A stretch of 64,000 nt of DNA from assembly GCA_951406725.2 (NCBI GenBank), contig OX597842.1:29450001-29514000 (forward strand), written 5' to 3'. Position numbers and translations under genes: made by a program. The notes under the pieces were generated by a model. It was not told where the DNA came from, did not search any database, and worked only from the letters and a program-made list of their open reading frames with translations. Shown here in pieces: positions 19,700 through 58,997 of this stretch (position 1 is its first letter; each line of letters opens with the position of its first letter). The DNA is from Octopus vulgaris (lineage: Eukaryota).

Positions 19700-20737
<1,038 letters not shown>

Positions 20738-21925
20738 ACACTTCACAATGATAAAGTGTTTTTCATTTCCATGAATGCATTTCTGTTCACTTTTGTCACT
20801 TCATTCAGATAACAATTTAATGCAATGTTTCTTCCATACATTCCAGAGAAAGAAAAATATTTCGCTGTTCCTTGTTATAGACTGTATTTATATACAGAGG
20901 TAGACTTATTCATGAATGCTCCTTATAAATATACTGTCTTCCTTTAGGTGATGAGAATATCAAAGACACTTCTGAATGGAGAGATTTCCTTCACGTCAAC
21001 ATGTTGTGATATTCTGAAATAGGAAAAGAAGCAGTAAGATAAAACTGGATAGTTGACCAACATAAGTAATTCAACATTGCAGATTTTATATCACTACCAT
21101 TGTCATGCATTTACTGTCCATGCTTGCATAAGTAGATTGAGTTGGAAGGTGTTAGAAGCTAATGGGAATGGAGCTAGCCAAAACGAAAATATAGTGGGCA
21201 TAACATGACCAGAGTAGTGAGTTGATGCCATCCAGAATTTCGCAGAGCAAAGTTGTCACAAGTGAAATGGGCTGTTTATGAAGTGATCAGAGTTAATGAT
21301 GAAGAAGCATTGTTACTCGTCTGCCGCCTTTCCGCTAACTAATTAAAACTCCCACTTCTCTTCATGGGCACTGAACTTCCCTCTGGGATCCATTCGTGCC
21401 CACCCTCATGGGCTGGAGAATGTCATAGCAGAACAGTGCTATGGTGTCACAACTAAAATAGCTTTCCTGACTTGCTACAATATTAAATACTGGCAGAATC
21501 ACTAAGATGCCGGATTAATTGCTTAACAGCATTTCGTTCGTAAATAGCTTTGTCAAACTAGAGATAAAAGCAATCAGGAATGGGAGTGTGTCTGTGCATT
21601 GTTTATTTCTCTTCAATCAGGTACACACTGTGAGGGTGAGTACGATCGATCATTTGGGCATCCAGATGCCCCTCCCACCTAACCAGGAGTCCCTTATCTG
21701 AAGACCAGCTTGCTAGCTAGCCCACAGTGAAGGTCCCTCTTTATATTTCGTCTATCATGAGTTGGTGCCCGAAACGTCTTTCCTTTCAAAGTATAACTTC
21801 CACTGAGGTCGAATTTCATCCTTTCGAGGTAAATAAAATAAGCAGTAGAGCACTCGAGTCCCTGAAGTTAACTTGTCCCCTTCCTACAAATTTCAGGTTT
21901 TGTACTTAAAAATACAAAAAGAAAA

Positions 21926-22842: not shown

Positions 22843-24062
22843 GCACAGCTACGATTATCACCGCCTATGCCCCACATGCGGGGCTACCAAATGATCAGAA
22901 GGACCACTTTTACGATACCCTTCTACAGGCTACCTCAAAGACTAGTGACAAAGACCTCATCTTTGTGGGTGGAGACTTTAATGAGCATGTTGGGCGGGAA
23001 TCGGGTATCTTCACTGGGGTACACGGTGGTCATGGTATTGGCACCAGAAATGATGAGGAACTAGACTACTGGAATTCTGTGATGCATGCAACCTTTTAAT
23101 CTGCAAAACTAACTTCAGGAAGCCTGACTGCCACCTTATAACTTATCAGTCAGGAGACTCCACTTGCCAAATAGACTTCATCCTCACCAGACAGCGGGAT
23201 GCAGGGTCGCTCTTAAATACAAAGACCCTCCCGGTTGAAGAATGTATCCCTCAGCATAGGTGACTTTAGGCTTCAGGCATTAGTGACTTTAGGCTTCAGG
23301 CCAGAAGGACTCCAAGAAACAGACCAATCCAGAAAAGAAGGATTTGGAAGCTAAAGAACCCTTCACATGGTCAGAGATTTAGGGACATCCTCATCAAGAA
23401 ATTTGATGAGAGGGAGGTAGAGCTACAGACGTCGGACATAGAAGGTAGCTGGAAATTCCTACAGGACAGCTTGCTGAGTGCCACAGACCAAGTCTGTGGA
23501 TGGTGCAAAGTCCCTTCCAGACCTAGAGTTACGTGGTGGTGGAATAGTGCAGTAGACAAAGCCATTAGTGCAAAGAGACAGGCCTGGAAAGCCTGGAGGG
23601 ATGGGGGTAGCAGGGAAATGTACCAAGTAGCCAAAATGGAGGCCGGGCGACAGGTATACATAGCCAAAGATATAGCAGAAAAGAAGAAGTTTGCCAATGT
23701 CCAGCGACGTGAGGACCAAAGAACTGAGGTATTTTGGATTGCTAGACAGTGTGTGAGAGAAAATAGTGATGTTACAGGAGAGAAATGTGTCCGCATGGAT
23801 GATGGGGCACTTGCTTTTACTGTTGGTGAAAAGAAAGAGGCTTGGAGAAGCCATTATGAAAGACTGCTGAATGTGGAGAATGAATGGGAGGAGGAGAGCC
23901 TGCCAAATGTTGACCCAGTAGAGAGACCAGCTACCCGAATAGACAGCTCCCTTGTAGTTAAGGCAATTAAGGGTAGGAAACCAGGCAAAGCCCCCGGCCC
24001 ATCAGGTATCACTGCTGAGATGCTTAAAACAGCTGGTTATGTGGGCTATGGCCTAGTCACCC

Positions 24063-24064
<2 letters not shown>
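22840..24064 (+). mobile_element. RTE-clade LINE internal fragment (APE C-terminal half and linker), bounded by (TA)n
   Basis: DLIFVGGDFNEHVG, IDFILTR, then ORF 23471 ([19 protein letters not shown]...[15 protein letters not shown]), clearly homologous to 42723-43560. Confidence 0.9.
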
Positions 24065-24112
<48 letters not shown>

Positions 24113-24188
24113 ATGTACACACTTACACACGCATATATATATATACATATATATATATATACATATATATATATACATATATATATAC

Positions 24189-24242
<54 letters not shown>

Positions 24243-24430
24243 CGGAGTAAACACATAAATGTGAAACAAGGTGGAAAAAGAGTGCTCAAAAAACCAGTGG
24301 TAGAGTAATATGCTTTATTTAAAGTAGCAGAAAATTCTACAAAACCTGTTACTTCGAGTTTCACACGTTCGTACGTATGTGTGTATGTATGTATGTATAT
24401 ATATACATACATACATTCATATATACACAG

Positions 24431-25590: not shown

Positions 25591-25842
25591 TATACATACA
25601 TAAATACATGCATACATATATACATATACATATATATATGTACGTATGTATATATGTATATATATATACATGACATGTATATATATATATAAATATATAT
25701 ATATAATAAAAGGAATTCCAACCTTGTCTGATTTCCACGTTTTATTTACAATCTTATAATGATATATTATAAGATAATATATTATAATTGAATAAAATAA
25801 AATGAAATAGTTGAATGTTGAATATATATATATATATATATA

Positions 25843-28800
25843 TTTGACATCTCTCTCCGCATCGATCACCCCTCCAGCTCTCTCACCACCACCGCCTTCT
25901 TTAAACCTACGGATTCCCACCTCTATCTCAACTTCTCTTCCTCCCACCCCTTCCACACCAAACGAGCCATCCCCTACTCCCAGTTCCTCCGCCTCCGACG
26001 TTTGTGCAGCCGCGACCAGGATTTCGAGACCCAATCTCAATACCTGGCCCGCATGTTCAGACTCCGAGGTTACCCACCCACACTCCTCTCTGATGCCCTC
26101 ACCCGCGCCCGTCGCATCGACCGCACTACCGCCTTGTCTCCTTCCCCCCGCCCACCCCCCAACCGCACCCCTTCCCCCTCCTTTTCCACCCCTCTACCCT
26201 ACCCCTTCGTCGCAAGATACTACGTGCCTTCCGTCGCCTCCAGCTTGATCCCACCACCCGCCCCATTTTCCCTAACCCACCCCTGTCCTCTTTCAAACGA
26301 GCCCGCAATCTGCGTGACCTCCTGGTCCACAGCACCCTCTCTCCTTCCCCCTCAGCCCCACACGGATCATTCCCTTGCTCTAGATCCCGCTGCAACACTT
26401 GCCCCTTCATCACCAACACCACCGCTGTCACCGGCTCCAACCTGCATACTGTACGCATTAGGCACTCTTTTACGTGCACCTCGTCTGGCCTTATTTACTG
26501 CATTAAATGCAACCTATGCGGGATGCTGTATGTAGGTCAGACGGGACGCTGGTTGTCCGACCGTTTCACTGAACACTTGAGGGACGTTCGCCTACACTCT
26601 TTTTCTCCCGTCGCACGCCACTTCCGCTCGGCCGGCCATTCCCGAGATGACATCTCAGTGTTTGGTCTCGCCCCCCACAATGGTCGCCCACTTTCCAGGC
26701 TCCACTTGGAGCAACGCTACATCTTCACCCTACAAACCACCACCCCACACGGACTTAACACAGCCCCCTCCTCTTGAGACCGTTTTTTTTTTTTTTTTTT
26801 TTTTTTTTTCCGGACACACCACCCACACACACCCACCCACCTACCTCCCACCCACCTACCTCCCACCCACCTACCTACCTCCCACACGCCTGTTCACACA
26901 CACACATACGTAGACCCATCTACGTACATACATTCACACATTTAATCACACACACTTACAGACACACATGCACATACACACACACATACATACATACACA
27001 CACGCATACATACTTACACACACACACACACACAGACATACATACACACATACACACACACATACATACGCACATACATACACACACACTCACACACACA
27101 CACCGCACGTACATACTTCACACACACACACATGCACACATACATGTAGGCACATACATACATACATACCCACACATGCACACCCGTACACTGAATGCAC
27201 ACACACATACACCTTTTTGCATCCAGGCAGCCCCCCTCTTTTCTGCTTTCCGGTTTGGGCTGATGGATCCTCGGTTCCCGCGTAGCGGGGCGTTCGAGGG
27301 CCTTTGCGCTCGCGCGCCTTGGCGCGCGCTGGGGGCTCGGTCGGCCCCTTTGGGCTTGCGTTGCACTGCTTGTGCGTTGTGTGCGTGAGCGCGCTTCGTG
27401 TGTGTGGGCTTGCTTCGGATGTGCGCTTGCGTATGTTTGCATACATACCCACACACTCGCATGCATCCCTACCCACATACATACACGCACACCTACTCAC
27501 ACACACACATACACACACACACATACCCGCACACACACACACATACATACATACACACACATACCCACTTCAGACATACACACACACAGACATACACCCA
27601 CACTCACACGCATACACACACACACATACACACGCACACGTACACATACACACACACACACACACACCTACATACATACATTACACTTGTATACACACAC
27701 ACTTACATTCATACACACACACACCTACACAGCCATACCCTCACTCAGACACACACATCTACCTACACACACACAAACACACACTGACACACACCCATAC
27801 ATACATACATCTACACACTCACGCCTACACACATACATACACACATACATAAACACACACACATACTTACACACACATACGCACACACACATACACTCAC
27901 ACTCACATACACACACACATACCTACATACTCCTATACGCACATACATACACACAGACATACACACACACACACACACACTCCCACACACATACACACGC
28001 ACCTACATACACACACGCACGCATACACACGCATACACACATACATTACACACGTACACACACACCTACATACACATGCATACACACACACACACAAACA
28101 TGCACGGACACACCCAGACATACATACATACACCTATATACACACGCCTACACACCTACATACACACACATATACACACGCCCACACAGCTACATACACA
28201 CACATACATACACACATACACGGACACACCCAGACATACTTACATACATACACCTATACACACACGCCTACACACCTACACACACACATGCACACACACA
28301 CACATGTACGCACATACACACACATATACGCACACACATATATACCCACACACATGCACACACACACACATACGCACATACATGCACGCATGCACACACG
28401 CACACACTACACACACACACACACACACACGCACGTACACATACATACATACACACACGCATACATACACCCATACACATACATGCATCCTACACACACA
28501 TACATACACACTCACACATACATACACACACACGCACTCACTCACACACCTGTATGTTCGCGCACACACATGCACATACACACACTTCCCCACACCCACA
28601 CGTACATACATACACACTCATACACACATACACACACACACACACACACGGACATACATCTATGCACACACATATATACACACATACTCACATACATTCA
28701 TCGGACACACTGCCACCCAGACATACACACAGACACACTCACACATCCACACGCACACATACGTACGCGCACACTCGCAGGCTCGCGCACACACGCGTTT

Positions 28801-34370: not shown

Positions 34371-36859
34371 ACACACATATATACATGCATACATATATAC
34401 GCCGATGCACACACACATACACACAGACAGACCAACCAAAGCCTTGTGGGTGGATTTTGACAGAAACTGAAAGAAATCAATCGTATATATGTATATATAT
34501 GTAAGTGTATGTGTGTCTTTGTCTCTGTGTTTCCCCCTCTTCACTGCTTCACAACTGCTGTTCGTTTATTTACACCCCCATAACTTACTGGTTTCACAAG
34601 AAGAAACTGATAGAATAAGTACTGGGCTTACAAAAGAATAAGTCCCGGGTTCGAGTTGCTTGATTAAAGGCGGTGCTCCAGCATGGCCGCAGTCAAATGA
34701 CTAAAGCAAGTAAAAGAGTAAAGAGAGATATTATGTATACATGCTCCAGCATGGCCGCAGTCAAATGACACAAACAAGTAAAAGAACATATCGTCATCAT
34801 CTTCCTCGTTGTCATTGTTTAATGTCTGCTTTCCATTCTGGCATAGGTTGGACTGTTTGACAGAGAAGCAGAACAGTGCAGGGCTGGGTCAGGCTGCAAT
34901 GTCATCTTTACAATGGTTTCTACTGCTAGATGCCCTTCCTAATGCCAACCACAGAATGTACTGGGTGCTTTTTATGTGTCGCCAGCATCAGTCGATGCAG
35001 GGAGCAGGTGTGGCTATGAGGTAGGGAGTTTGCTACCCAACCCATGCTTGCAGTTTGGGTAAGTGTCTCCCATGATGGCCTTGGGTCAACTAAAACCTTG
35101 TGAGTGGATGTGGTAGATGGAAACTGAGAGAAGCATATCACGTATACACATATCATCATCATCGTTTAATGTCTGCCTTCCATGCCAGCCTGAGGGGGAT
35201 GGCTTGACAGGAGTCTGCCAGGTGGAAGACTGCACGAGATCTGTGATTGTTTTAGCAGGATTTTACAGCTGGATGCCCTTCCTGACACCAACCATTCAGC
35301 AGAGGGTTTATGGCTTGTTATGTGGTATGGTTTTGGTAAGAATCTCACTTCACTTGGAAACAGGTAAGGATTGGCAACAGGAAGGGCATCCAGCTGTAGA
35401 ATATCTGCCTCTGTATAATCCATCTGATCCATTGAAGCATGGAAAATTGGATGTTAAAATGATGACAATGATGATGGTCTGTCTTGTTCCGTAAAGGAGC
35501 TTCTACACAGATTACAGAAGCTACTGGAAATAGCAGCCAAATATTTCTGAAATATTAAATAAAGGATATTGAACCATGTACTTGCTCTCAAAGCAAGTGG
35601 TCCTGTGGCATCTTAAGCAAATGTCTTCTACTACAGCCCTGGGCCAACTAAAGCCTTGTGGGGAGATTTGGTAGGTGGAAAGTGTATCATGTATACAATT
35701 AGGTGTGTATGTGTATCTTTGTGTTTCTCCTCCCCTCCCTGCCATACTGCATGTGACTATGGTTGTTAGTTTGTTTACATCCTAGTGACATAGTGGTTGG
35801 TCCAAAGAGACTCATAGAATATGTAGCAAACTTAAATATAAGTAGAGGGGTTGATTCGTTTGATTGATCCATTTAAAGAAGTACTCCAGCATGGCCACAG
35901 TCCCTGGCTGAACCACTTGCTGGCACTCTATGTTTTAGTTTATCCAATCAACTGAAAAGCCTGCTCATGGAATTAACATGCAAATGGCTGAGTATTCCAC
36001 AGACATGTGGACCCTTAATATAGTCTTCAGGGAGGCACAGCATGACACGGATGGTGAGAAGACTGGCCCTTTGAATTACAGGTGAGACTCATTTTTGACA
36101 CCTGAGTGGACTGATGCAAAGTGAAATAAAATGGCTTGGAGACTCATTGCACCACTGTGTATCGAACTCACAACTTTACAATTGTGAGTGAAATACCCTA
36201 ACCACTAAGCCATGCCACTTCACAGGTGAAACAAGTGAAAGGAGAGAAGAGAAAGAAAACAGATAAATAATTAGAGAAAGGTAAAAATGATTCATCTATA
36301 TACAGAATGTTGTAAAACTTTCAATGCCTCAATGGATTCTGCCCCATGCAAACGTAGATATTAAATGGATGTCAATTGATGTCGTAAAATTGAATTACTC
36401 TGTTGTTTAACTATCCACTTTATCTTACTGCCTCTTTTCCTATTTCAGAATATCACATCGTGTCGACATAAAAGAAATTTCTTCATTCAGACGTGCCTCT
36501 GATGTTTTTATTGACTTTCCTTGACTGAAGGACGTCCACAAGAAACATTCATCAATACATCAACCTCTTAATATAAATTAGATCTTCAACAAATGATGGG
36601 AAAAAATTTCTGGACATTGTATTTCACAACAACATTGTTTTTCTCCACAGTCTGGAATGTAGAGGAGATTATCAGTTAACAGGTTGATTAACATTGGATA
36701 ACTTTACAAAAGATTTGACAGTTTACATTTTCTATTTTAGACATTAAGTAAAATCACAAACGAAAGAAACATAAGATTAAATTATTCTCTGGAAATAGTG
36801 ACACAACTAAACACTAACATCCACAGAATTTTGAAGAACACACTATTATTGTGATATTT

Positions 36860-37958
36860 ATGACAGATTATTCTCTCATAATGAATAATTTGACTGAACC
36901 AAAAACCCCTGATACAAAAGAGAAGCCATATCATTGTGATATCTGTGGTAAATCATTTTCTAATTGTGGTAACTTGACTAAACACAAACGTACACATACA
37001 GGAGGGAAACCATATCACTGTGATGTCTGTGGTAAATCATTCTTGCAAAATGGTCATTTGACTCATCAAAAACATATTCTTACTGGGGAAAAAACCATAT
37101 CACTGTGATATCTGTGGTAAATCATTTCCTGAGTCTGCTCCCTTGAGATCACACAAACGTGTTCATACAGAAGAGAAGCCATATCACTGTGATATTTGTG
37201 GTAGGTCATTCTCTCAAAGGAGTAACTTGACTGTACACAAACGTATTCATACAGGAGAGAAGCCATTTCATTGTGATATCTGTGATAAATCGTTCGCTAG
37301 CAATAGTGTATTGACTAATCACAAATGCAGTCATACTGGGGAAAATCCATATCAGTGTAATATCTGCGGTAAATCATTTTCCAGAACTGACACTGTCACT
37401 CGTCACAAACGTATTCATACTGGGGAAAAACCGTATCATTGTGGTATCTGTGGTAAATCATTTTCTCAAGGTGGTGACGTGCTTAAACACAACCGTACTC
37501 ATACAGGTGAGAAGCCCTATCATTGTACTATCTGTGGTAGATCATTTTCTGGAAGTAGTGACTTGATTAAACACAAACGTATTCATACAGGAGAGAAACC
37601 ATATCATTGTAATATCTGTGGTAAATCATTTTCTGAAAGTAACACTTTAACTAGGCATAAACGTATTCATAAGGGAGAGAAGCCATATTTTTGTAATATC
37701 TGTTATAAAGCATTCTCTACAAATAGCTATTTGATTAGTCACAAATGTATTAATACTGAAGAAAACCCATATCAGTGTGATATTTGTGGTAAATCGTTTT
37801 CTCAAAACAGGACTTTAAATAATCACAGACGTATTCATACAGGAGAGAAGCCATATCAGTGTTATATTTGTGGTAAATCATTCTCCCAAAGTGGGGTCTT
37901 GTCTAAACACAAACGTACCCATACAGGGAAGAAGCCACATGATTGTGATATCTGGTGA
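36860..37958 (+). CDS. C2H2 zinc-finger protein (~12 finger repeats), interrupted by a +1 A in a homopolymer at ~37089-37094
   Basis: ATG at 36860; ORF 36851..37108 (2 fingers) and ORF 37143..37958 join if one A is removed from ACTGGGGAAAAAACCA. TGEKP linkers throughout. Splice acceptor ...CCTATTTCAG ends at 36448. Confidence 0.75.
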
Positions 37959-38639
37959 ATCATTCTCTAGCAATAGTAACAAGCATATTCATACTGGGGA
38001 AAAAACCATATCAATGTCATATCTGTGGTAAACCATTCTCTGCAAATGGCCTCTTAAGTACTCGTGAGTATTCATACACAAGTGTAACTGTATCAGTATT
38101 AAATTTTATTACAACACGACAACAATTATGAATATTTTGTCTGCTAAAAGACAGGGTTTATTCCTCTTCAAGCTTGACATTATCAACTTCAGTTTCTTGG
38201 ATGTCCACATGAAATTCATGAATCACAACTTCAATATCATTTATATATCTAAATATATCAACACAGAGATGACTTTGGTTTCTGAAGATGATTGTGCTGG
38301 ATTTTTGAGGAATTTGTTTTGAGAGAATAAAGGAATGGGAATAAGGAATAACAGTTTTAAGTGACATTGATTTTTGCCTTTGTTGTGTTTTCATCATCAT
38401 CATCTTCATCATCCTCTAACATCCATTTTCTTTGCAGGCTTGGATGGGAAAGTGTGACAGGTGCTGGCAAGCCAGAGTGCTGCTCCAGGTTCCACTCAGA
38501 TTTCGTTTGGTTTCATTGGCTGTATTCCCTTAAGATACGTAGTTTATAAATATGCCTGTACCATAACAGCATGAAACTAGTAGTAGCTCTTTTGGTTATG
38601 TATTTAGTTTGAGATTTTTTTCTAGTTTCAGCTCAGAGC

Positions 38640-39510
38640 AGCGGCCATGCTGATGCACCGCCGTTTTGTGCTACACTGTTATTACGACGGACCTTGTCTA
38701 ATATGTGGCACTTGGTGAAGAATGGAGTTTGATACAGCTACTCTCATTTGCACCTCTTGCCGTGAGGTAGGTTCATCTGGGACTCTTGACAGGAAGATGT
38801 CCAGCTTTGATTTAAAAACCGCTACATCTACTTTGTGCAAGTTCCTCAGACTCTTTGGGAGAATATTAAAAAGCTGTGGGCCCTTGAAACCCAGGCTGTT
38901 GCAGAAGCTGGTCCTGAAGCGTGATGGCATTGCTGGGATCTTTGGCACTATGCAGTGTCGTCCCGTTCTAGCATTGGTGTAGCTTACAATGCCAAAATTT
39001 GGCACAATTCCTTCCAGGATCTTCCAGACATATATTACTGCATACCTCTCCCGTCTTCTCTCCAGGGAGTAGAGTCTTAGCTGTTTCAACCTTTCCCAGT
39101 AGCTGAGCTGTTGCAAAGAGACGATCTTCTTTGTGAATCTTCTCTGGATTGCTTCAAGGTTCGCTGTTAATTTTACACTGGTGGGTGACCATAGCTGTGA
39201 GCAGTAATCCAGGCGACTGAGGACGAATGTCCGCCAGAGGACCATCATGGTTTCCTTATCTCTGGTTCTGAATGTTCTTAGGATCCACCCAGGCAGTCGT
39301 CTGCACTTTGTCGCCATCCTGGTAATGTGCACTTGGAAAGAGGTATCATCACTCATGTCGATACCCAGGTCCCACACAGACTTAGGCTCTGGGATTGAAA
39401 TTTCCTGTGGACCGGTGTATCCTGTAAGTTTAATATTCAGTTTTGGATGCTGGTAGCGCAGGGCCTGGAATTTTTCAGCATTAAATTGCATATTATTATC
39501 CTGCATATTA
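38640..39510 (-). mobile_element. CR1-like LINE, 3' portion of ORF2
   Basis: NNMQFNAEKFQ...DLGIDMSDD...SRLDYCSQLWSP...LEAIQRRFTKKI...YWERLKQLRLYSLERRRERY. Confidence 0.88.
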
Positions 39511-39774
39511 TTATATGTATTTGTGTGAACACACCTGATTACTAAAATAAATGTATACAAATCTTGTATTCGAAGCATTTTTCTGAATGGGGTAGTGGCA
39601 TGGACTCCCTTTTGCAGACAAATAAGAAAAACTTGAAACTTTTCGCATGTGTGCAACACATGCAGCAAAATGGCAAGATAAGACATCAAATGTCAAAATC
39701 TTAGAAATGTGTGATATGTCCAGTATCCATAGCATGCTGATGAGAATTCAGTGCAGAGGGGTAGGACATGTTTT

Positions 39775-42509: not shown

Positions 42510-42593
<84 letters not shown>

Positions 42594-42610
42594 TATATAC
42601 ATATATATAT

Positions 42611-42641
<31 letters not shown>

Positions 42642-42648
42642 CATATAT

Positions 42649-42722
<74 letters not shown>

Positions 42723-42724
<2 letters not shown>

Positions 42725-45580
42725 GCTTATAAATTCCAAAACATTTCCAGGCGAGGAATGTACCCCACAACATAGACTGGTAGTTAGTGACTTTAGGATC
42801 AGGACTAAGAGGACGACCAGAAGACGACCAACATGGAGAAGAAGGATCTGGAAGCTTAAAGATCCTGCAAATGGACAGAGATTTAGGGACATATTACTTG
42901 ACGCCTTTGACGAAATAGAAGGGGATATGGCATCACATAATGTGGAAACCAACTGGAGGTTTCTACGGGACAATCTGCTGAGTGCCACTGACCAGATCTG
43001 TGGATGGAGTAAAGTCCCATCTCGTCCCAGGGTAACATGGTGGTGGAACAATGTTGTAGACAGGGCTATTAGAGACAAGAGACAGGCTTTGAAGGACTGG
43101 AGGAATGGCGGTAGTAGGGAATTGTATCAGACTGCGAAAAGAGAAGCTAGGAGACAGGTATATTTAGCCAGAGGGGAAGCAGATAAGAAAAACTTTGCCA
43201 ATGTTCTGCGCCGTGAGGACCAAAGATTTGAGGTGTTTCGTGTTGCAAGACATTTTGTGAGAGAGAATCGTGATGTGGTAGGAGAGAAATGTGTTCGCAT
43301 GGATGAAGGTTCACTTGCGCTAAATGAGGATGCAAAGAGAGAGGTTTGGAGATGCCACTATGAGAGGTTGCTCAACAAAGAGAATCAATGGGATAAAGAT
43401 AGTCTGCCGAATGTCGACCCAATAGAGGGACCAGCTCTCCGATTTGACAGTTCCATGGTAGTTTAGGCAATTAGAAGCATGAAGACAGAGAAAGCCCCAG
43501 GCCCATCAGGAATTACTGCAGAGATGCTCAAAATATCTGGCAGTGTCGGCTATAGCCTAGTCACCCGTATAGTTAACCAGGTGATACACGAAGGAGTCAT
43601 ACCCAATGACTGGTGTAGCAGCATAATAGTCAACTACAAAGGTAAAGGTGACGACCTAGATACAAATAATTACAGAGGTATCAAGCTGTTGGATCAGGTA
43701 ATGAAGGTTACAGAGAGGGTCATAGCCCAACTAATTAGAGAGAGAGTTAGTTTAGATGAGATACAGTTTGGATTTGTGCCAGGGAAAAGCACCACTGATG
43801 CCATATTTCTGGTAAGGCAGCTGCAGGAGAAATATATAGCCAAAGATAAGCCCCTGTACCTGGCTTTCGTTGACATGGAGAAAGCTTTCGACAGGGTCCC
43901 CCGATCCCTTATCTGGTGGTCAATGAGGAAACTAGGGATAGATGAATAGTTAGTGAGAGCTGTGCAAGCCATGTACAGGGACGCTGCTAGTAAGGTGAGG
44001 GTTGGCTACGAGTACAGTGAAGAATTCCGGGTAGAGGTAGGGGTCCACCAAGGTTCAGCCCTCAGCCCCCTCCTATTTATCGTTGTCCTCCAGGCAATAA
44101 CGGAAGAATTCAAGACAGGATGCTCCTGGGAGCTCCTCTATGCTAATGACCTTGCTCTAATTGCTGAGTCACTATCAGAACTGGAGGAGAAGTTTCAGGT
44201 GTGGAAGCAAGGATTAGAATCGAAGGGCCTTAGAGTCAACCTAGCTAAAACCAAAGTCGTAATAAGTAGGAAGGTAGACAAGTCACAAACGCCTTCAGGT
44301 AAATGGCCTTGCTCGATCTGTAGAAAAGGTGTAGGTAGAAACTCTATAAGATGCACCACGTGTAAGCTATGGACACACAAGAGGTGCAGCAACGTCAAGG
44401 GAAGGCTAACTAGGAAGATGGTTTTTGTATGTGGCAGATGCTCAGGAGCAATAAACACTGAAAATGCTCTGAGACCAACTTCCGTTACTTTCGAGGGAGA
44501 AAAACTAGAAATAGTTGATAGCTTCCGTTACCTAGGTGATCAAGTCAGTAGTGGGGGTGGGTGTGCTGAAAGTGTAGCTGCTAGAGTAAGAATAGCCTGG
44601 GCAAAGTTCAGAGAGCTCCTACCTCTGCTGGCGACCAAAGGCCTCTCGCTCAGAGTAAAAGGCAGACTGTATGATGCTTTTGTACGAACAGCCATGCTAC
44701 ATGGCAGTGAAACATGGGCTGTAACTGCTGAGGATATGCGTAAGCTCGCAAGAAATGAAGCCAGTATGCTCCGATGGATGTGTAATGTCAGTGTTCATAC
44801 CCGACAGAGTGTAAGTATCTTGAGAAAAAAGTTGGACCTAAGAAACATCAGTTGTGGTGTGCAAGAGAGACGTTTGCGCTGGTATGGCCATGTGGCGAGA
44901 ATGTATGAAGATAGTTGTGTGAAAAAGTGCCACACCCTAGCTGTTGAGGGAATCTGTGGAAGAGGTAGACCCAGGAAAACCTGGGACGAGGTGGTGAAGC
45001 ACGACCTTCGAACTTAAGGTCTCACCGAGGAAATGACTAGAGACCGAGACCTTTGGAAATATGCTGTGCATGAGAAGACCCGGCAGGGCAAGTGAGACCA
45101 TCACCCATGGCCTCAGTCCACTTATGCATATCTTTCCTTCTTGGGATACAAAACCCTACTTGTGAAGACCTGTTGAGGCAAGTGAAAATCAAAAAATCGA
45201 AAAATGACAAAATCAAAAATCAAAATCGATCAACATGAATGGAAATTGTCACTGTGATTCAGTGCTGGTGGTACATAAGAGAACCATCCGAACGTGGCCG
45301 TTGCCATGTAAAAGCACCATCCGAGTGGCCATTAGCCTCGCCTGGCACGTAAAAAGCACCATCCGACCGTGGCCGTTTACCAGACTTGTATGGCACCTGT
45401 GCAGGTGGCACGTAAAAAGCACCCACTACACTCACGGAGTGGTTGGCGTTAGGAAGGGCATCCAGCCGTAGAAACATTGCCAGATCAGACTGGGCCTGGT
45501 GCAGCCTTCTGGCTTCTCAGACCCCAGTTGCAAAGTCCAACCCATGCTAGCATGGAAAGCGGATGCTAAACGATGATGAT
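42723..45580 (+). mobile_element. RTE-clade LINE, 5'-truncated, two in-frame stops
   Basis: Same-frame ORFs 42723..43466, 43479..43949 and 43953..45017 with RT motifs YRGIKLL, QFGFVPGKSTTDAIF, AFVDMEKAFDRVP, GVHQGSALSPLLF, LLYANDL; 3' tail TAAACGATGATGAT; (TA)n on both sides. Confidence 0.95.
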
Positions 45581-48647: not shown

Positions 48648-49342
48648 ACCAAACAAGGTCAAACCCCCTTTACATATTGCCTCTGCTCATGGACGCAAGG
48701 ACGTTGTTGATTTTCTCCTGCAACAGGAATGACAAACAATCTTGCCTGTGAAAACAAATAAACATTGTTGAACTTCTGCAACGAAATGGCTCTGACATCT
48801 GTGCCGTGACCAAGCAAGGTCGAACCCCTTTACATATTGCCTCTGCTCATGGACGCACGGAAGTTATTGATTTTCTCCTGAAACAGAATGGCACGGATGT
48901 TAAAGCTGTGACGGAAGATGGTTGGACAGCTCTCCATCTTGCCTGTGAGTATGGACAAATAAACATTGTTGAACTTCTGCAACGAAATGGCTCTGACATC
49001 TGTGCCGTGACCAAGCAAGGTCGAACCCCTTTACATATTGCCTCTGCTCATGGACGCATGGAAGTTATTGATTTTCTCCTGAAACAGAATGGCACGGATG
49101 TTAAAGCTGTGACGGAAGATGGTTGGACAGCTCTCCATCTTGCCTGTGAATATGGACAAATAAACATTGTTGAACTTCTCCTTCAACAGAAATGGCTCTG
49201 ACATCTGTGCTGTGACCAAACAAGGTCGAAACCCTTTACATATTGCCTCTGCTCATGGACGCAAGGACGTTGTTGATTTTCTCCTGCAACAGAATGACAC
49301 GGATGTTAAAGCTGTGACGGAAGATGGTTGGACAGCTCTCCA
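48648..49342 (+). pseudogene. Ankyrin tandem array (alternating two-repeat 201-bp unit), disrupted and truncated by the assembly gap
   Basis: GRTPLHIASAHGR.EVIDFLLKQNGTDV / EDGWTALHLACEYGQINIVELL units; period 201 bp (48806 to 49007); deletion in the first unit; frameshift at ~49190. Confidence 0.7.
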
Positions 49343-49769: not shown

Positions 49770-49853
49770 ATGGATGTAAATAAGATTATAAGCAACATTG
49801 TGGATAGGGACTTTAAAGATGTCGAACAACTTATCAAAGAAAATCCTGAAACT
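49770..49853 (+). CDS. Ankyrin-repeat gene, first coding exon (MDVNKIISNIVDRDFKDVEQLIKENPET)
   Basis: Acceptor TTCAAAAG ends at 49767, ATG at 49770, donor GTAAGT at 49854; phase 0. Confidence 0.65.
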
Positions 49854-56201: not shown

Positions 56202-57070
56202 GTCACTCAGCGAAATAATAAAGGTTGGACACCTCTACATCTTGCCTCGTATTATGGACACACAGACACAGCTAAACTTCTCCTACAACAAGATGGCACT
56301 GATGTGAGGGTGGTGGACAACGATGGTTGTACACCTCTACATCTTGCCTCTAATCAAGGACACACAGACACAGCTAAACTTCTCCTACAACAAGATGGCA
56401 CTGATGTGAGGGTGGTGGACAACGCTGGTTGGACACCTCTACATCATGCCTCGTATTATGGACACACAGACACAGCTAAACTCCTCCTACAACAAGATGG
56501 CACTGATGTGAGGGTGGTGACCAACGCTGGTTGGACACCTCTACATCATGCCTCGTATTATGGACACACAGACACAGCTAAACTCCTCCTACAACAAGAT
56601 GGCACTGATGTGAGGGTGGTGACCAACGATGGTTGGACACCTCTCCATCTTGCCTGTCAGAATGGACACACAGACACAGCTAAACTTCTCCTACAACAAA
56701 ATGGCACTGATGTGAGGGTGGTGACCAAATATGGTTGGACACCTCTACATCTTGCCTCGTATAATGGACACACAGACACAGCTAAACTTCTCCTACAACA
56801 AGATGGCACTGATGTGAGGGTGGTGACCAAATATGGTTGGACACCTCTCCATCTTGCCTCGTATAATGGACACACAGACACAGCTAAACTTCTCCTACAA
56901 CAGAATGGCACTGATGTGAGGGTGGTGGCCAACGATGGTTGGACACCTCTCCATCTTGCCTCTTCTCAAGGACACACAGACACAGCTAAACTCCTCCTAC
57001 AACAAAATGGCATCGATGCCAATAAAGCGGACAATGATGGTGACACTCCTCTCCATCGGGCAGTTCAAAA
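56202..57070 (+). CDS. Ankyrin-repeat gene exon with eight near-identical 102-bp (34-aa) repeats plus a half repeat
   Basis: TTTTTTAG acceptor; open frame VTQRNNKGWTPLHLASYYGHTDTAKLLLQQDGTD...GDTPLHRAVQ; donor GTAAGT at 57071; phase 2. Confidence 0.92.
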
Positions 57071-58176
57071 GTAAGTCCCCAATGGATTTGGATTATCCAA
57101 ATCTGTTTCTTTAATGTTTTCATTAACGTTTGTTTTCTTGTTTTGAGTCATTCATGTCGTAATCCCACCATGGGACGTCGTGCTTCAACTCTCTCTCTCA
57201 CACTCTAATGACACTGTAACCTACTTCATTAATTAATCATCATCATTATTATTGTTGCTGTTGTTACCTGACTAGATTCTTTACTTCATCTCAGCCTTCG
57301 TTACCTCAACGTTACAAGTTCAAATCTTTCCTTTTCTTCTTTTCATTCCATATAAAACACCCCACCCCCTCTCTCTTGTAATTTTCCTCTTTCCTCTGAC
57401 CCTGGGCTAAATACAGAATCATTCCCTTACAGTGTTTAGTTTGATCTGTTTATGTTCCAAGTTCAAATCCTGCCAGAGTATTTATTAACAACCTGGAGTG
57501 AAAATCTGTACCAGTAATATCCAGAGGTTCATTTAATAAATTGTCCTCCCTCTTTTCTCTTGTTTTTGTGTCTGATTGCTGTTGGGCAAAATACCTTGTG
57601 GTATTTATTTACCACACTTTATGTTCAGAGTTCAAATCCCGCTGAGGTCACCTTGTCTTTCCATCTTTGCTAGGCTAATAAAGTACAATACCAGTCATGT
57701 ACTGGGGTCCTTATAATCCACATTAATGCCTCTCCCCATCCTAAATTTCATGGCTATATAACAGTTGTTCATCATACCATATATAGATTGCCGTGTTTAC
57801 TCAGGTGTGTATATATATCGTTGGTCTATAATGTAGAGAGTATATCGAATATACGAGGGGGTACCCAAAAGTGGCCGGAAACGTTTCTGTAGGGCAAGGC
57901 CATTGAAGTTCAGGCTTCTGCTGCTAGAAGCCACTTGATGCGATATTAAAGGGTAAAATCAGAAATGATTTTTACCGAGTGGTCAGCGCGGAAATATAAC
58001 CTCATAAGTAAATTTTTATAAACATTTTATAATTATATACATAATTATAACAAGGGCTTGGCTTGCTCCTCACCACGCACTGAAAAATAGACATCAAAAG
58101 ACACTATTACCACCATTAATTCTCCGAGAAAAACACAGTACATGTGTTATAATTATGTATATAATTATAAAATGTT

Positions 58177-58209
<33 letters not shown>

Positions 58210-58650
58210 ATATGTAGGATCCAAGGATTGAGATGTAGGAAGGTGAGCTTCAAACAATCCATAGAAAATGTAAGAAACAACTTTCAGGAACAAAAGGGGT
58301 TTATTGGGGTGCAAGGTTGTTGGTTTTTCCCTTACCGCATCTTCTGTGTTTGAACATGTGCCTCCTATTGACAGTGTAAACTTCATTTAATCAAGACACC
58401 CTTGGTCTGAAGAGTAGCCTGTGGTATACACCTCGTTTGGATATTTACCAGTTCTGATGTTCCACCTGCTTTGAAACATATGTAGCCCAGATTTTATCTT
58501 AACTCATATATATATATACACACATGTATAATGTGTATTTGTGTGTATGTAATTATTGATGTAATTAGGTTATAATGACCTGATTACATTTGTTTTCATT
58601 GGTTAATCTAATAATAATTGTTTTTCCTCTCCTCTTTGTATAACTTTCAG

Positions 58651-58687
58651 GCAACAATATGGTGTGGTATCTTTGATGCTGGCCCAG
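58651..58687 (+). CDS. Ankyrin-repeat gene micro-exon ((K)QQYGVVSLMLAQ)
   Basis: TTTCAG acceptor, GTTAGT donor; 37 nt converts phase 2 to phase 0 and supplies the second helix of the split repeat. Confidence 0.75.
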
Positions 58688-58997
58688 GTTAGTTAACAAA
58701 TACATATTATATCCTCTCTCTAGTATTCAATATTTATATCATCAAAATACCAGTGAAATTCTGGGGGTAGATTTAATCAACTGCACTGCAGCAACCTTTT
58801 AATGGCAGGTCTCGGGTCTGTGAAGAATAATTATGTTGGTGGTAACAATGATGATAGTAGTAGTGGAGATGACAGTCCAACTGACCACCGCGGCTGATAG
58901 TACTATCTTTAATGGTCAGACAAAACAAGATCATTATGAATTCAACCCATATATATCAGATTATATATATCATCATCAACCACTCTGCCATATGCCC

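Follow-up and report, generated by a model that had tools for sequence, protein, structure and literature searches.

Gene organization around the repetitive ankyrin exon

The window, i.e., the whole stretch of DNA that was analysed, comprises 64,000 nucleotides of the Octopus vulgaris contig OX597842.1 (positions 29,450,001 to 29,514,000, forward strand), and coordinates are counted from its first base. The exon under study, at 56202-57070, is the fourth of six predicted exons of an ankyrin gene, which lies downstream of another ankyrin array:

48648..49342, + strand: second ankyrin array; frameshifted, alternating 34- and 33-residue units, 201-bp period, diverged paralogue type; 57% to P0174
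49343..49442, no strand: 100-N assembly gap, separating the upstream array from exon 1
49770..49853, + strand: predicted exon 1; ATG, N-terminal cap repeat; GT donor, in frame; start common to P0121, P0123, and P0124
51454..51605, + strand: predicted exon 2; single-copy ankyrin repeats; AG and GT borders; Pfam Ank; 92% to P0123
55184..55340, + strand: predicted exon 3; single-copy ankyrin repeat; AG and GT borders; Pfam Ank
56202..57070, + strand: exon 4; 56214-57029 encodes eight homogenised ankyrin units of 34 residues each, after which a ninth, ordinary repeat begins
58651..58687, + strand: predicted exon 5; 37 bp, encodes the rest of the ninth repeat; AG and GT borders, phase 0 restored; same peptide in P0121 and P0123
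62452..62664, + strand: predicted exon 6; final ankyrin repeats, then the first part of a family-specific linker; 68-96% identical to 17 Octopus proteins

Together, the six exons form a stop-free open model of 504 codons with GT-AG borders, which ends at a donor and continues past the window edge. The product has the helix-turn-helix repeats and TPLH motif that mark ankyrin repeat proteins, Pfam Ank was matched by eight stretches of it, and four of the five exons other than exon 4 either scored as ankyrin or were too short for testing; exon 1 had no Pfam match. The model opens with ankyrin repeats, and although the assembly gap lies ~330 bp upstream, three paralogue models share the same starting methionine. 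No RING or death exon was found within the 64-kb window, and those belonging to the gene of exon 4 itself would be placed beyond it.

AlphaFold2, when given an alignment, predicted a canonical ankyrin stack (pLDDT 98, pTM 0.93), and the array model resembled 6mok, 4rlv, and 8cs9 with TM scores of 0.85-0.92. An all-beta model from single-sequence AlphaFold (pLDDT 64) was dismissed as an artefact. Neither a signal peptide nor a membrane helix was seen in a crude hydropathy scan of five proteins, where the highest 19-residue values were 0.9-1.5. This argues for a product that is likely a cytosolic binder and not a surface receptor; a membrane receptor was set aside for now on the low hydropathy, a crude test.

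In the upstream array (48648-49342), a block of two repeats is present three times, with frameshifts, and its surfaces hardly change from copy to copy; amplification by itself therefore makes no surface diversity. This array, which stops at the 100-N gap, suggests a tandem cluster of the ankyrin-RING-death family described below, and it may be a pseudogene or a contig-end error. Elsewhere in the window, C2H2 zinc-finger arrays with an 84-bp period were found at 36818-37969 (+, split over two frames) and 19983-20800 (-, broken by frameshifts). Retroelement-like remnants, reverse-transcriptase-like by eye, lie at 42549-45017 (+), 23270-24250 (+), 38682-39692 (-), and 25822-26777 (+), and the frame at 25822-26777 looks Penelope-like, again by eye.

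Exon 4 is built of near-identical units that have exchanged sequence

The segment 56202-57070 is a single exon of 869 bp, with an AG acceptor and a GT donor, running from phase 0 to phase 2. From 56214, it contains eight 102-bp units, each of which encodes a 34-residue ankyrin repeat, and TRF reported a period of 102 with 7.7 copies and 93% matches. The bounds, unit count, and periodicity of the array given in the first-pass annotation were all reproduced, and its listing of the turn triplets, the W/C and L/H alternatives, and the helix-end triplets was matched exactly. Mean identity to the unit consensus was ~89% over 272 residues, as counted by hand. Among units 1-7, 2-12 of the 102 bases differed pairwise, while unit 8 differed from the rest at 17-23 of 102 bases because its last codons form a different, terminal tail. 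The adjacent pairs 3-4 and 6-7 were just 2 and 3 bases apart, respectively, which fits recent tandem duplication.

The variable blocks had been described as occurring in mosaic combinations, and this was confirmed by the four-gamete test, which was failed by 20 of 36 informative-site pairs, including three mutually incompatible silent sites. Such failures require exchange between units, or else improbable repeated mutation. Sites have thus been recombined between the units of exon 4.

Variation is concentrated at the positions randomised in designed ankyrin repeat proteins

In the excerpt of PMC3308923, a designed-ankyrin library is described in which positions 2, 3, 5, 10, 13, and 14 were randomised as one exposed surface, and the numbering of that library fits a DARPin sequence. 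All six of these positions vary in the array, compared to 3 of the 28 others (p = 6e-5), so that the overlap with designed ankyrin repeat proteins proposed earlier was upheld against the excerpted numbering. However, variation was concentrated on the binding surface and not confined to it, as had been claimed, since the off-face positions 1, 12, and 27 vary too. In the predicted model, the variable positions fell in the hairpin loop and helix 1 by secondary structure and, from this location together with the library numbering, the variable sites are predicted to map to the concave face.

Among 228 unrelated repeats, ten positions show high variability. Five of them belong to the binding face, and all five vary in the array; of the remaining five, positions 17, 18, 25, and 34 are invariant and off-face position 27 is the one that varies, a comparison subject to the circularity noted below for the scaffold pattern.

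The resemblance to designed ankyrin repeat proteins, which were also the top structural matches of the array model, lies in a constant framework with variable positions 2, 3, 5, 10, 13, and 14, as given in the excerpt of PMC3308923. The octopus array differs in being natural, in its 34-residue unit and in the high variability of position 1 as well, and each position takes a much smaller set of residue types (2-7 across 23 units) than in the designed library.

Replacement changes are in excess on the binding face

When the tail of unit 8 was excluded, the minimum was 19 replacement and 6 silent changes. Synonymous changes were therefore few, as noted in the first-pass annotation, but 3 of the 6 sit inside the variable blocks, an enrichment that was not significant (p 0.16-0.18). 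For the six binding-face codons, 14 replacement changes on ~15 sites were compared to the 6 silent changes of the whole unit on 25-30 sites, which gave a replacement/silent ratio of 3.8-4.9 (p 0.0006-0.004, or 0.001-0.009 with simulated tree-length variance between codons); these counts are small (20 changes) and come from conservative minimum-change counting. The other codons had a ratio of 0.34-0.43. In a local test restricted to codons 1-5 and 10-14, which make up the variable blocks, the ratio was 1.5-2.0 and not significant (p 0.18-0.35). A nonsynonymous excess at the variable sites was thus found for the six binding-face codons (p<0.01) but not by the local block test.

A surface bias was also evident outside exon 4, in a paralogue comparison made at the protein level. 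Across exons 2-3, whose repeats are single-copy, four close paralogues differed at 9 of 14 surface positions and 4 of 79 other positions (p = 1e-6); the bias is therefore not a property of the homogenised exon alone. For exons 5-6, seven sequences differed at 6 of 12 surface versus 12 of 63 other positions (p = 0.03). Some unit alleles were found in the diverged upstream array as well, and old variants imported by conversion could consequently mimic selection. Taken as sequence patterns, these data suggest that diversifying selection has likely acted on the binding-face codons.

The exon 4 gene belongs to an expanded Octopus family with RING and death domains

When exon 6 was used as a query, 20 proteins matched among 45 candidates, and 17 of them were Octopus models with 68-96% identity. 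A query with the rear part of the protein matched 18 of 810 candidates, each of them an Octopus entry, named or partly named. The closest full-length relatives, P0121, P0122, and P0123 (O. sinensis), were 88-93% identical outside exon 4 and contained Ank, RING (PF13920), and Death (PF00531) domains above the Pfam cut-offs. In the close paralogues, the ankyrin repeats are followed by a C3HC4 RING, then by a linker in which short repeats are alternatively included, and last by the death domain; a downstream C-terminal domain, for which death and RING had been among the candidates named, can thus be read in the closest paralogues as a RING followed by a death domain. Among nine close RINGs, only a few of 38 residues differ. 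Within the RING-death linker (26-118 residues), isoform models and genes carry different numbers of a cysteine-containing repeat of 17 residues, and this second variable module was seen in P0121, P0149, P0150, P0152, P0153, P0126, P0128, P0131, and P0133.

The family linker was found in 40 of the best 150 representatives at 50% identity, many of them partial models, a count that spans three species and is not a gene number, and in which squid and cuttlefish are perhaps poorly represented. A RING pattern was present in 24 of the 40 linker carriers and a death region in 21. All 22 carriers with a species name were from O. sinensis, O. vulgaris, or O. bimaculoides (the other 18 of the 40 had no look-up). 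Their database names are automatic ones, such as MIB2-like, ankyrin-3-like, secG-like, and PP6 regulatory subunit-like. In a family tree that is unrooted, has no true MIB outgroup and leaves out the gene of the window, P0121-P0123 fell in a short-branched group (support 94/99) whose rows were O. sinensis and O. vulgaris apart from one without a name, and in which no named O. bimaculoides member was present.

Arrays of the exon 4 type occurred in 4 of 29 non-redundant members (from 88 candidates) and were absent from the other 25. Unit number was 4, 6, 7, and 8 across the four array genes, the gene of the window having 8. Their 23 units present 20 different surfaces, with turn and helix blocks recurring between genes in other combinations; the scaffold pattern used for this unit comparison fixes positions 15-26 by construction, which brings in some circularity (it caught 4/4 units of P0121, 7/7 of P0123, and 4/6 of P0122, and the window units were cut by coordinates). 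The proposal of a cephalopod gene family therefore holds for an expanded Octopus family, with RING and death domains in the closest paralogues, although the homogenised arrays are limited to 4 of 29 members.

When exon 4 itself was used as a query among longer proteins, generic long ankyrin proteins were found among the 120 matches listed. Two gastropod proteins, P0002 (Haliotis rufescens) and P0095 (Babylonia areolata), combine an nSTAND3 NTPase with long ankyrin arrays, and one of them has an N-terminal caspase domain, i.e., NLR-like builds exist in other molluscs.

A probable origin of the family in the Mind bomb rear half

Among the 60 PDB chains listed for a profile of the rear part, MIB1 (8v0e) was the sole one to span the last repeats together with the linker, its residues 244-384 aligning to profile positions 2-129; exon 6 is the one piece of this region that falls within the window. 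As in the Octopus family, the ankyrin region of MIB1 and MIB2 leads through the same post-ankyrin linker to a C3HC4 RING, and MIB1/MIB2 proteins are marked by two or three C-terminal RINGs. According to the excerpt of PMC7815719, MIB2 has N-terminal MIB and zinc-finger domains and ends in two RINGs, the first of which is dispensable in the human protein for ubiquitylation of cFLIP-L. Two RINGs at the end were found in P0198 and P0199 only, among 21 proteins examined, whereas P0121-P0124 have one RING and a death domain. The single RING of the other members resembles the first RING of the two-RING members (scores of 84-120 versus 28-60).

N-terminal MIB or zinc-finger domains were not detected by Pfam in 8 + 30 members, and a motif search for them was negative in 331 proteins, so the family members are not MIB proteins by membership. 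They further differ from MIB1/MIB2 in having many paralogues, an amplified surface-variable ankyrin exon and, in the closest paralogues, a death domain in place of the last RING. A likely origin for the family, and the simplest one given these comparisons, is a duplicate of the Mind bomb rear half in which a death domain took over the position of the last RING. In one family member, the death region matched death domains from ankyrin-3, RIPK1, PIDD, and CRADD, none of them clearly the nearest. In the close paralogues, the RINGs kept all eight zinc ligands, and their best PDB match was the RING of cIAP1 (E 1.6e-9). Ubiquitin-ligase activity of the putative RING is nevertheless uncertain, because the RING that was kept is the counterpart of the first RING, which the excerpt reports as dispensable in human MIB2.

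Sequencing runs bearing on the array

Sampled words of the window were found in 20 sequencing runs from 11 studies and 4 organisms, with a share of 0.51-0.64 (maximum 0.64), and polymorphism, contig simplification, or species differences would all fit a share below 1. None of the runs listed was an RNA run, which says nothing either way about expression. Tandem adjacency of units was seen in an independent DNA run, one contig of which links the end of a unit directly to the next unit's start; the contigs are too short to span the array. Another contig, of a putative RNA run, matches 56925-57070 with 25 differences and ends at the predicted donor, which is no more than a weak hint, and for a paralogue. 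No exon 4-5 joint was present among the joints listed (best 15 of 49). When four runs were mapped to one unit and the next intron, a repeated element of the intron swamped the signal; this intron, which follows exon 4, contains fragments of high-copy repeated elements (57150-58750) that dominate read mapping. The array of P0122 contains indels.

Comparison with other repeat-based systems

The likeness to homogenised repeats of fungal NLRs suggested in the first-pass annotation was well founded, as the same evolutionary regime is documented, in the excerpt of PMC4986451, for fungal NLRs with conserved ankyrin repeats (Podospora Pa_3_8560 and Pa_2_8180). Like the octopus array, these have near-identical repeats, variation in the inner helix and beta-hairpin, and repeat-number differences. 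Signs of positive selection are reported for the fungal repeats, and in the octopus array the test of the six binding-face codons was significant but the local block test was not. High internal conservation is defined for the fungal repeats as 85% over 100 residues, and the octopus array has ~89% over 272 residues, by hand count. In contrast to the fungal NLRs, the octopus family has an N-terminal sensor and a RING and death tail, and NACHT and NB-ARC were absent by Pfam in 8 + 30 members; having no NOD domain, the family is not NLR. Repeat polymorphism between individuals is reported for the fungal genes in the excerpt, whereas the octopus array numbers are known between genes alone.

Pairs of the three domains also occur elsewhere. 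ANKDD1A/B, like the Octopus family, combine ankyrin repeats with a death domain, and stand-alone arthropod and plant proteins combine ankyrin repeats with a RING. These look-alikes had domain-feature similarities of 0.92-0.94 with <170 shared features and are leads only. None of the look-alike clusters, with at most three families shown per cluster, had all three domains together. The zinc-finger minisatellite of PRDM9, in which homogenised units in one exon vary at contact residues, is an analogy, with a different fold and DNA as the ligand.

No description of an ankyrin-RING-death Octopus family was found in literature titles and abstract starts; supplements and gene-family tables could list the expansion. 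By term search, the main text of PMC9068888 has no mention of ankyrin, MIB, death domain, or ubiquitin, and the excerpt of PMC6522055 mentions other proteins alone, besides one full-score MIB1. The evolutionary pattern is already known from fungal NLRs, while the Octopus family itself appears new to the literature searched. The suggestion in the first-pass annotation that it may be undescribed stands within that search.

Candidate function and alternative explanations

We propose, with a probability of roughly 0.55, that exon 4 is the variable part of a cytosolic ankyrin-RING-death binder with shuffled, selected faces, whose most likely role is defence against invaders inside the cell. Exchange among the eight units would keep the scaffold uniform while reshuffling the surface residues; we infer unequal crossover and conversion as the mechanism by which the array changes, and such events in exon 4 would alter both the length and the make-up of the concave ankyrin face. 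This face would bind a protein target, with selection favouring new faces, and the bound target may then be passed to the near-constant RING and death-domain tail and hence to ubiquitin and death-fold partners. The only two properties that would link the family to immunity are its domain content and its mode of evolution, and a defence setting is favoured because of the death domain and this mode of evolution.

The same pattern could have arisen by non-adaptive turnover, in which a young duplicate amplified one repeat, received conversion tracts from older paralogues, and retained only tolerant surface changes under purifying selection. We regard this as unlikely, although several observations are in its favour: the local ratio was not significantly above 1, half of the silent changes (3/6) lie within the blocks, alleles are common to the exon 4 units and the upstream array, and many family models are partial or broken. 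Purifying selection is also strongly relaxed in new repeat copies, according to the excerpt of PMC5120217. Tolerance alone, however, does not predict that the equally tolerant positions 17, 18, 25, and 34 would be invariant, nor that the fourfold-degenerate codons 4, 11, and 15 beside the blocks would be free of silent change; the surface bias is moreover present in single-copy repeats, and the silent enrichment in the blocks was not significant (p 0.16-0.18).

Diversifying selection may instead have been imposed not by pathogens but by fast-evolving internal partners, such as transposon proteins, expanded zinc-finger proteins, or neural and developmental substrates, as for MIB in Notch signalling, which we hold to be improbable to about the same degree. 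The rear half is MIB-like and the gene lies among C2H2 zinc-finger genes and retroelement remnants, but neighbourhood alone says little and the MIB2-type N-terminal MIB and zinc-finger domains are absent. A death domain is a pointer to death or NF-kB type signalling, and its addition here argues in that direction. That the array and its variation are an assembly artefact, or the gene a pseudogene, appears very improbable. A 100-N gap and a frameshifted array lie directly upstream, no indexed sequencing run contained more than 0.64 of the sampled words, and indels occur in the P0122 array; yet the six exons have an intact frame and splice sites, the same variant blocks occur in database proteins of other genes, and adjacent units are joined in the contig of the independent DNA run, while the order and number of units rest on the assembly.

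The reading of exon 4 as the variable part of a defence-related cytosolic binder can be extended, tentatively and with more doubt than confidence, to the family as a whole. The rear half of Mind bomb may have been turned into a repertoire of cytosolic NOD-less immune sensors, that is, a natural DARPin library that is reshuffled within one exon, differs between animals, and is coupled to ubiquitin and death-domain signalling. To our knowledge, the recognition of intracellular invaders by cephalopods is poorly known. The Octopus family, which is hidden in databases behind several automatic names, is a concrete candidate that would pair a variable sensor with a constant signalling tail, and its exon 4 alleles could be typed by a single long amplicon.
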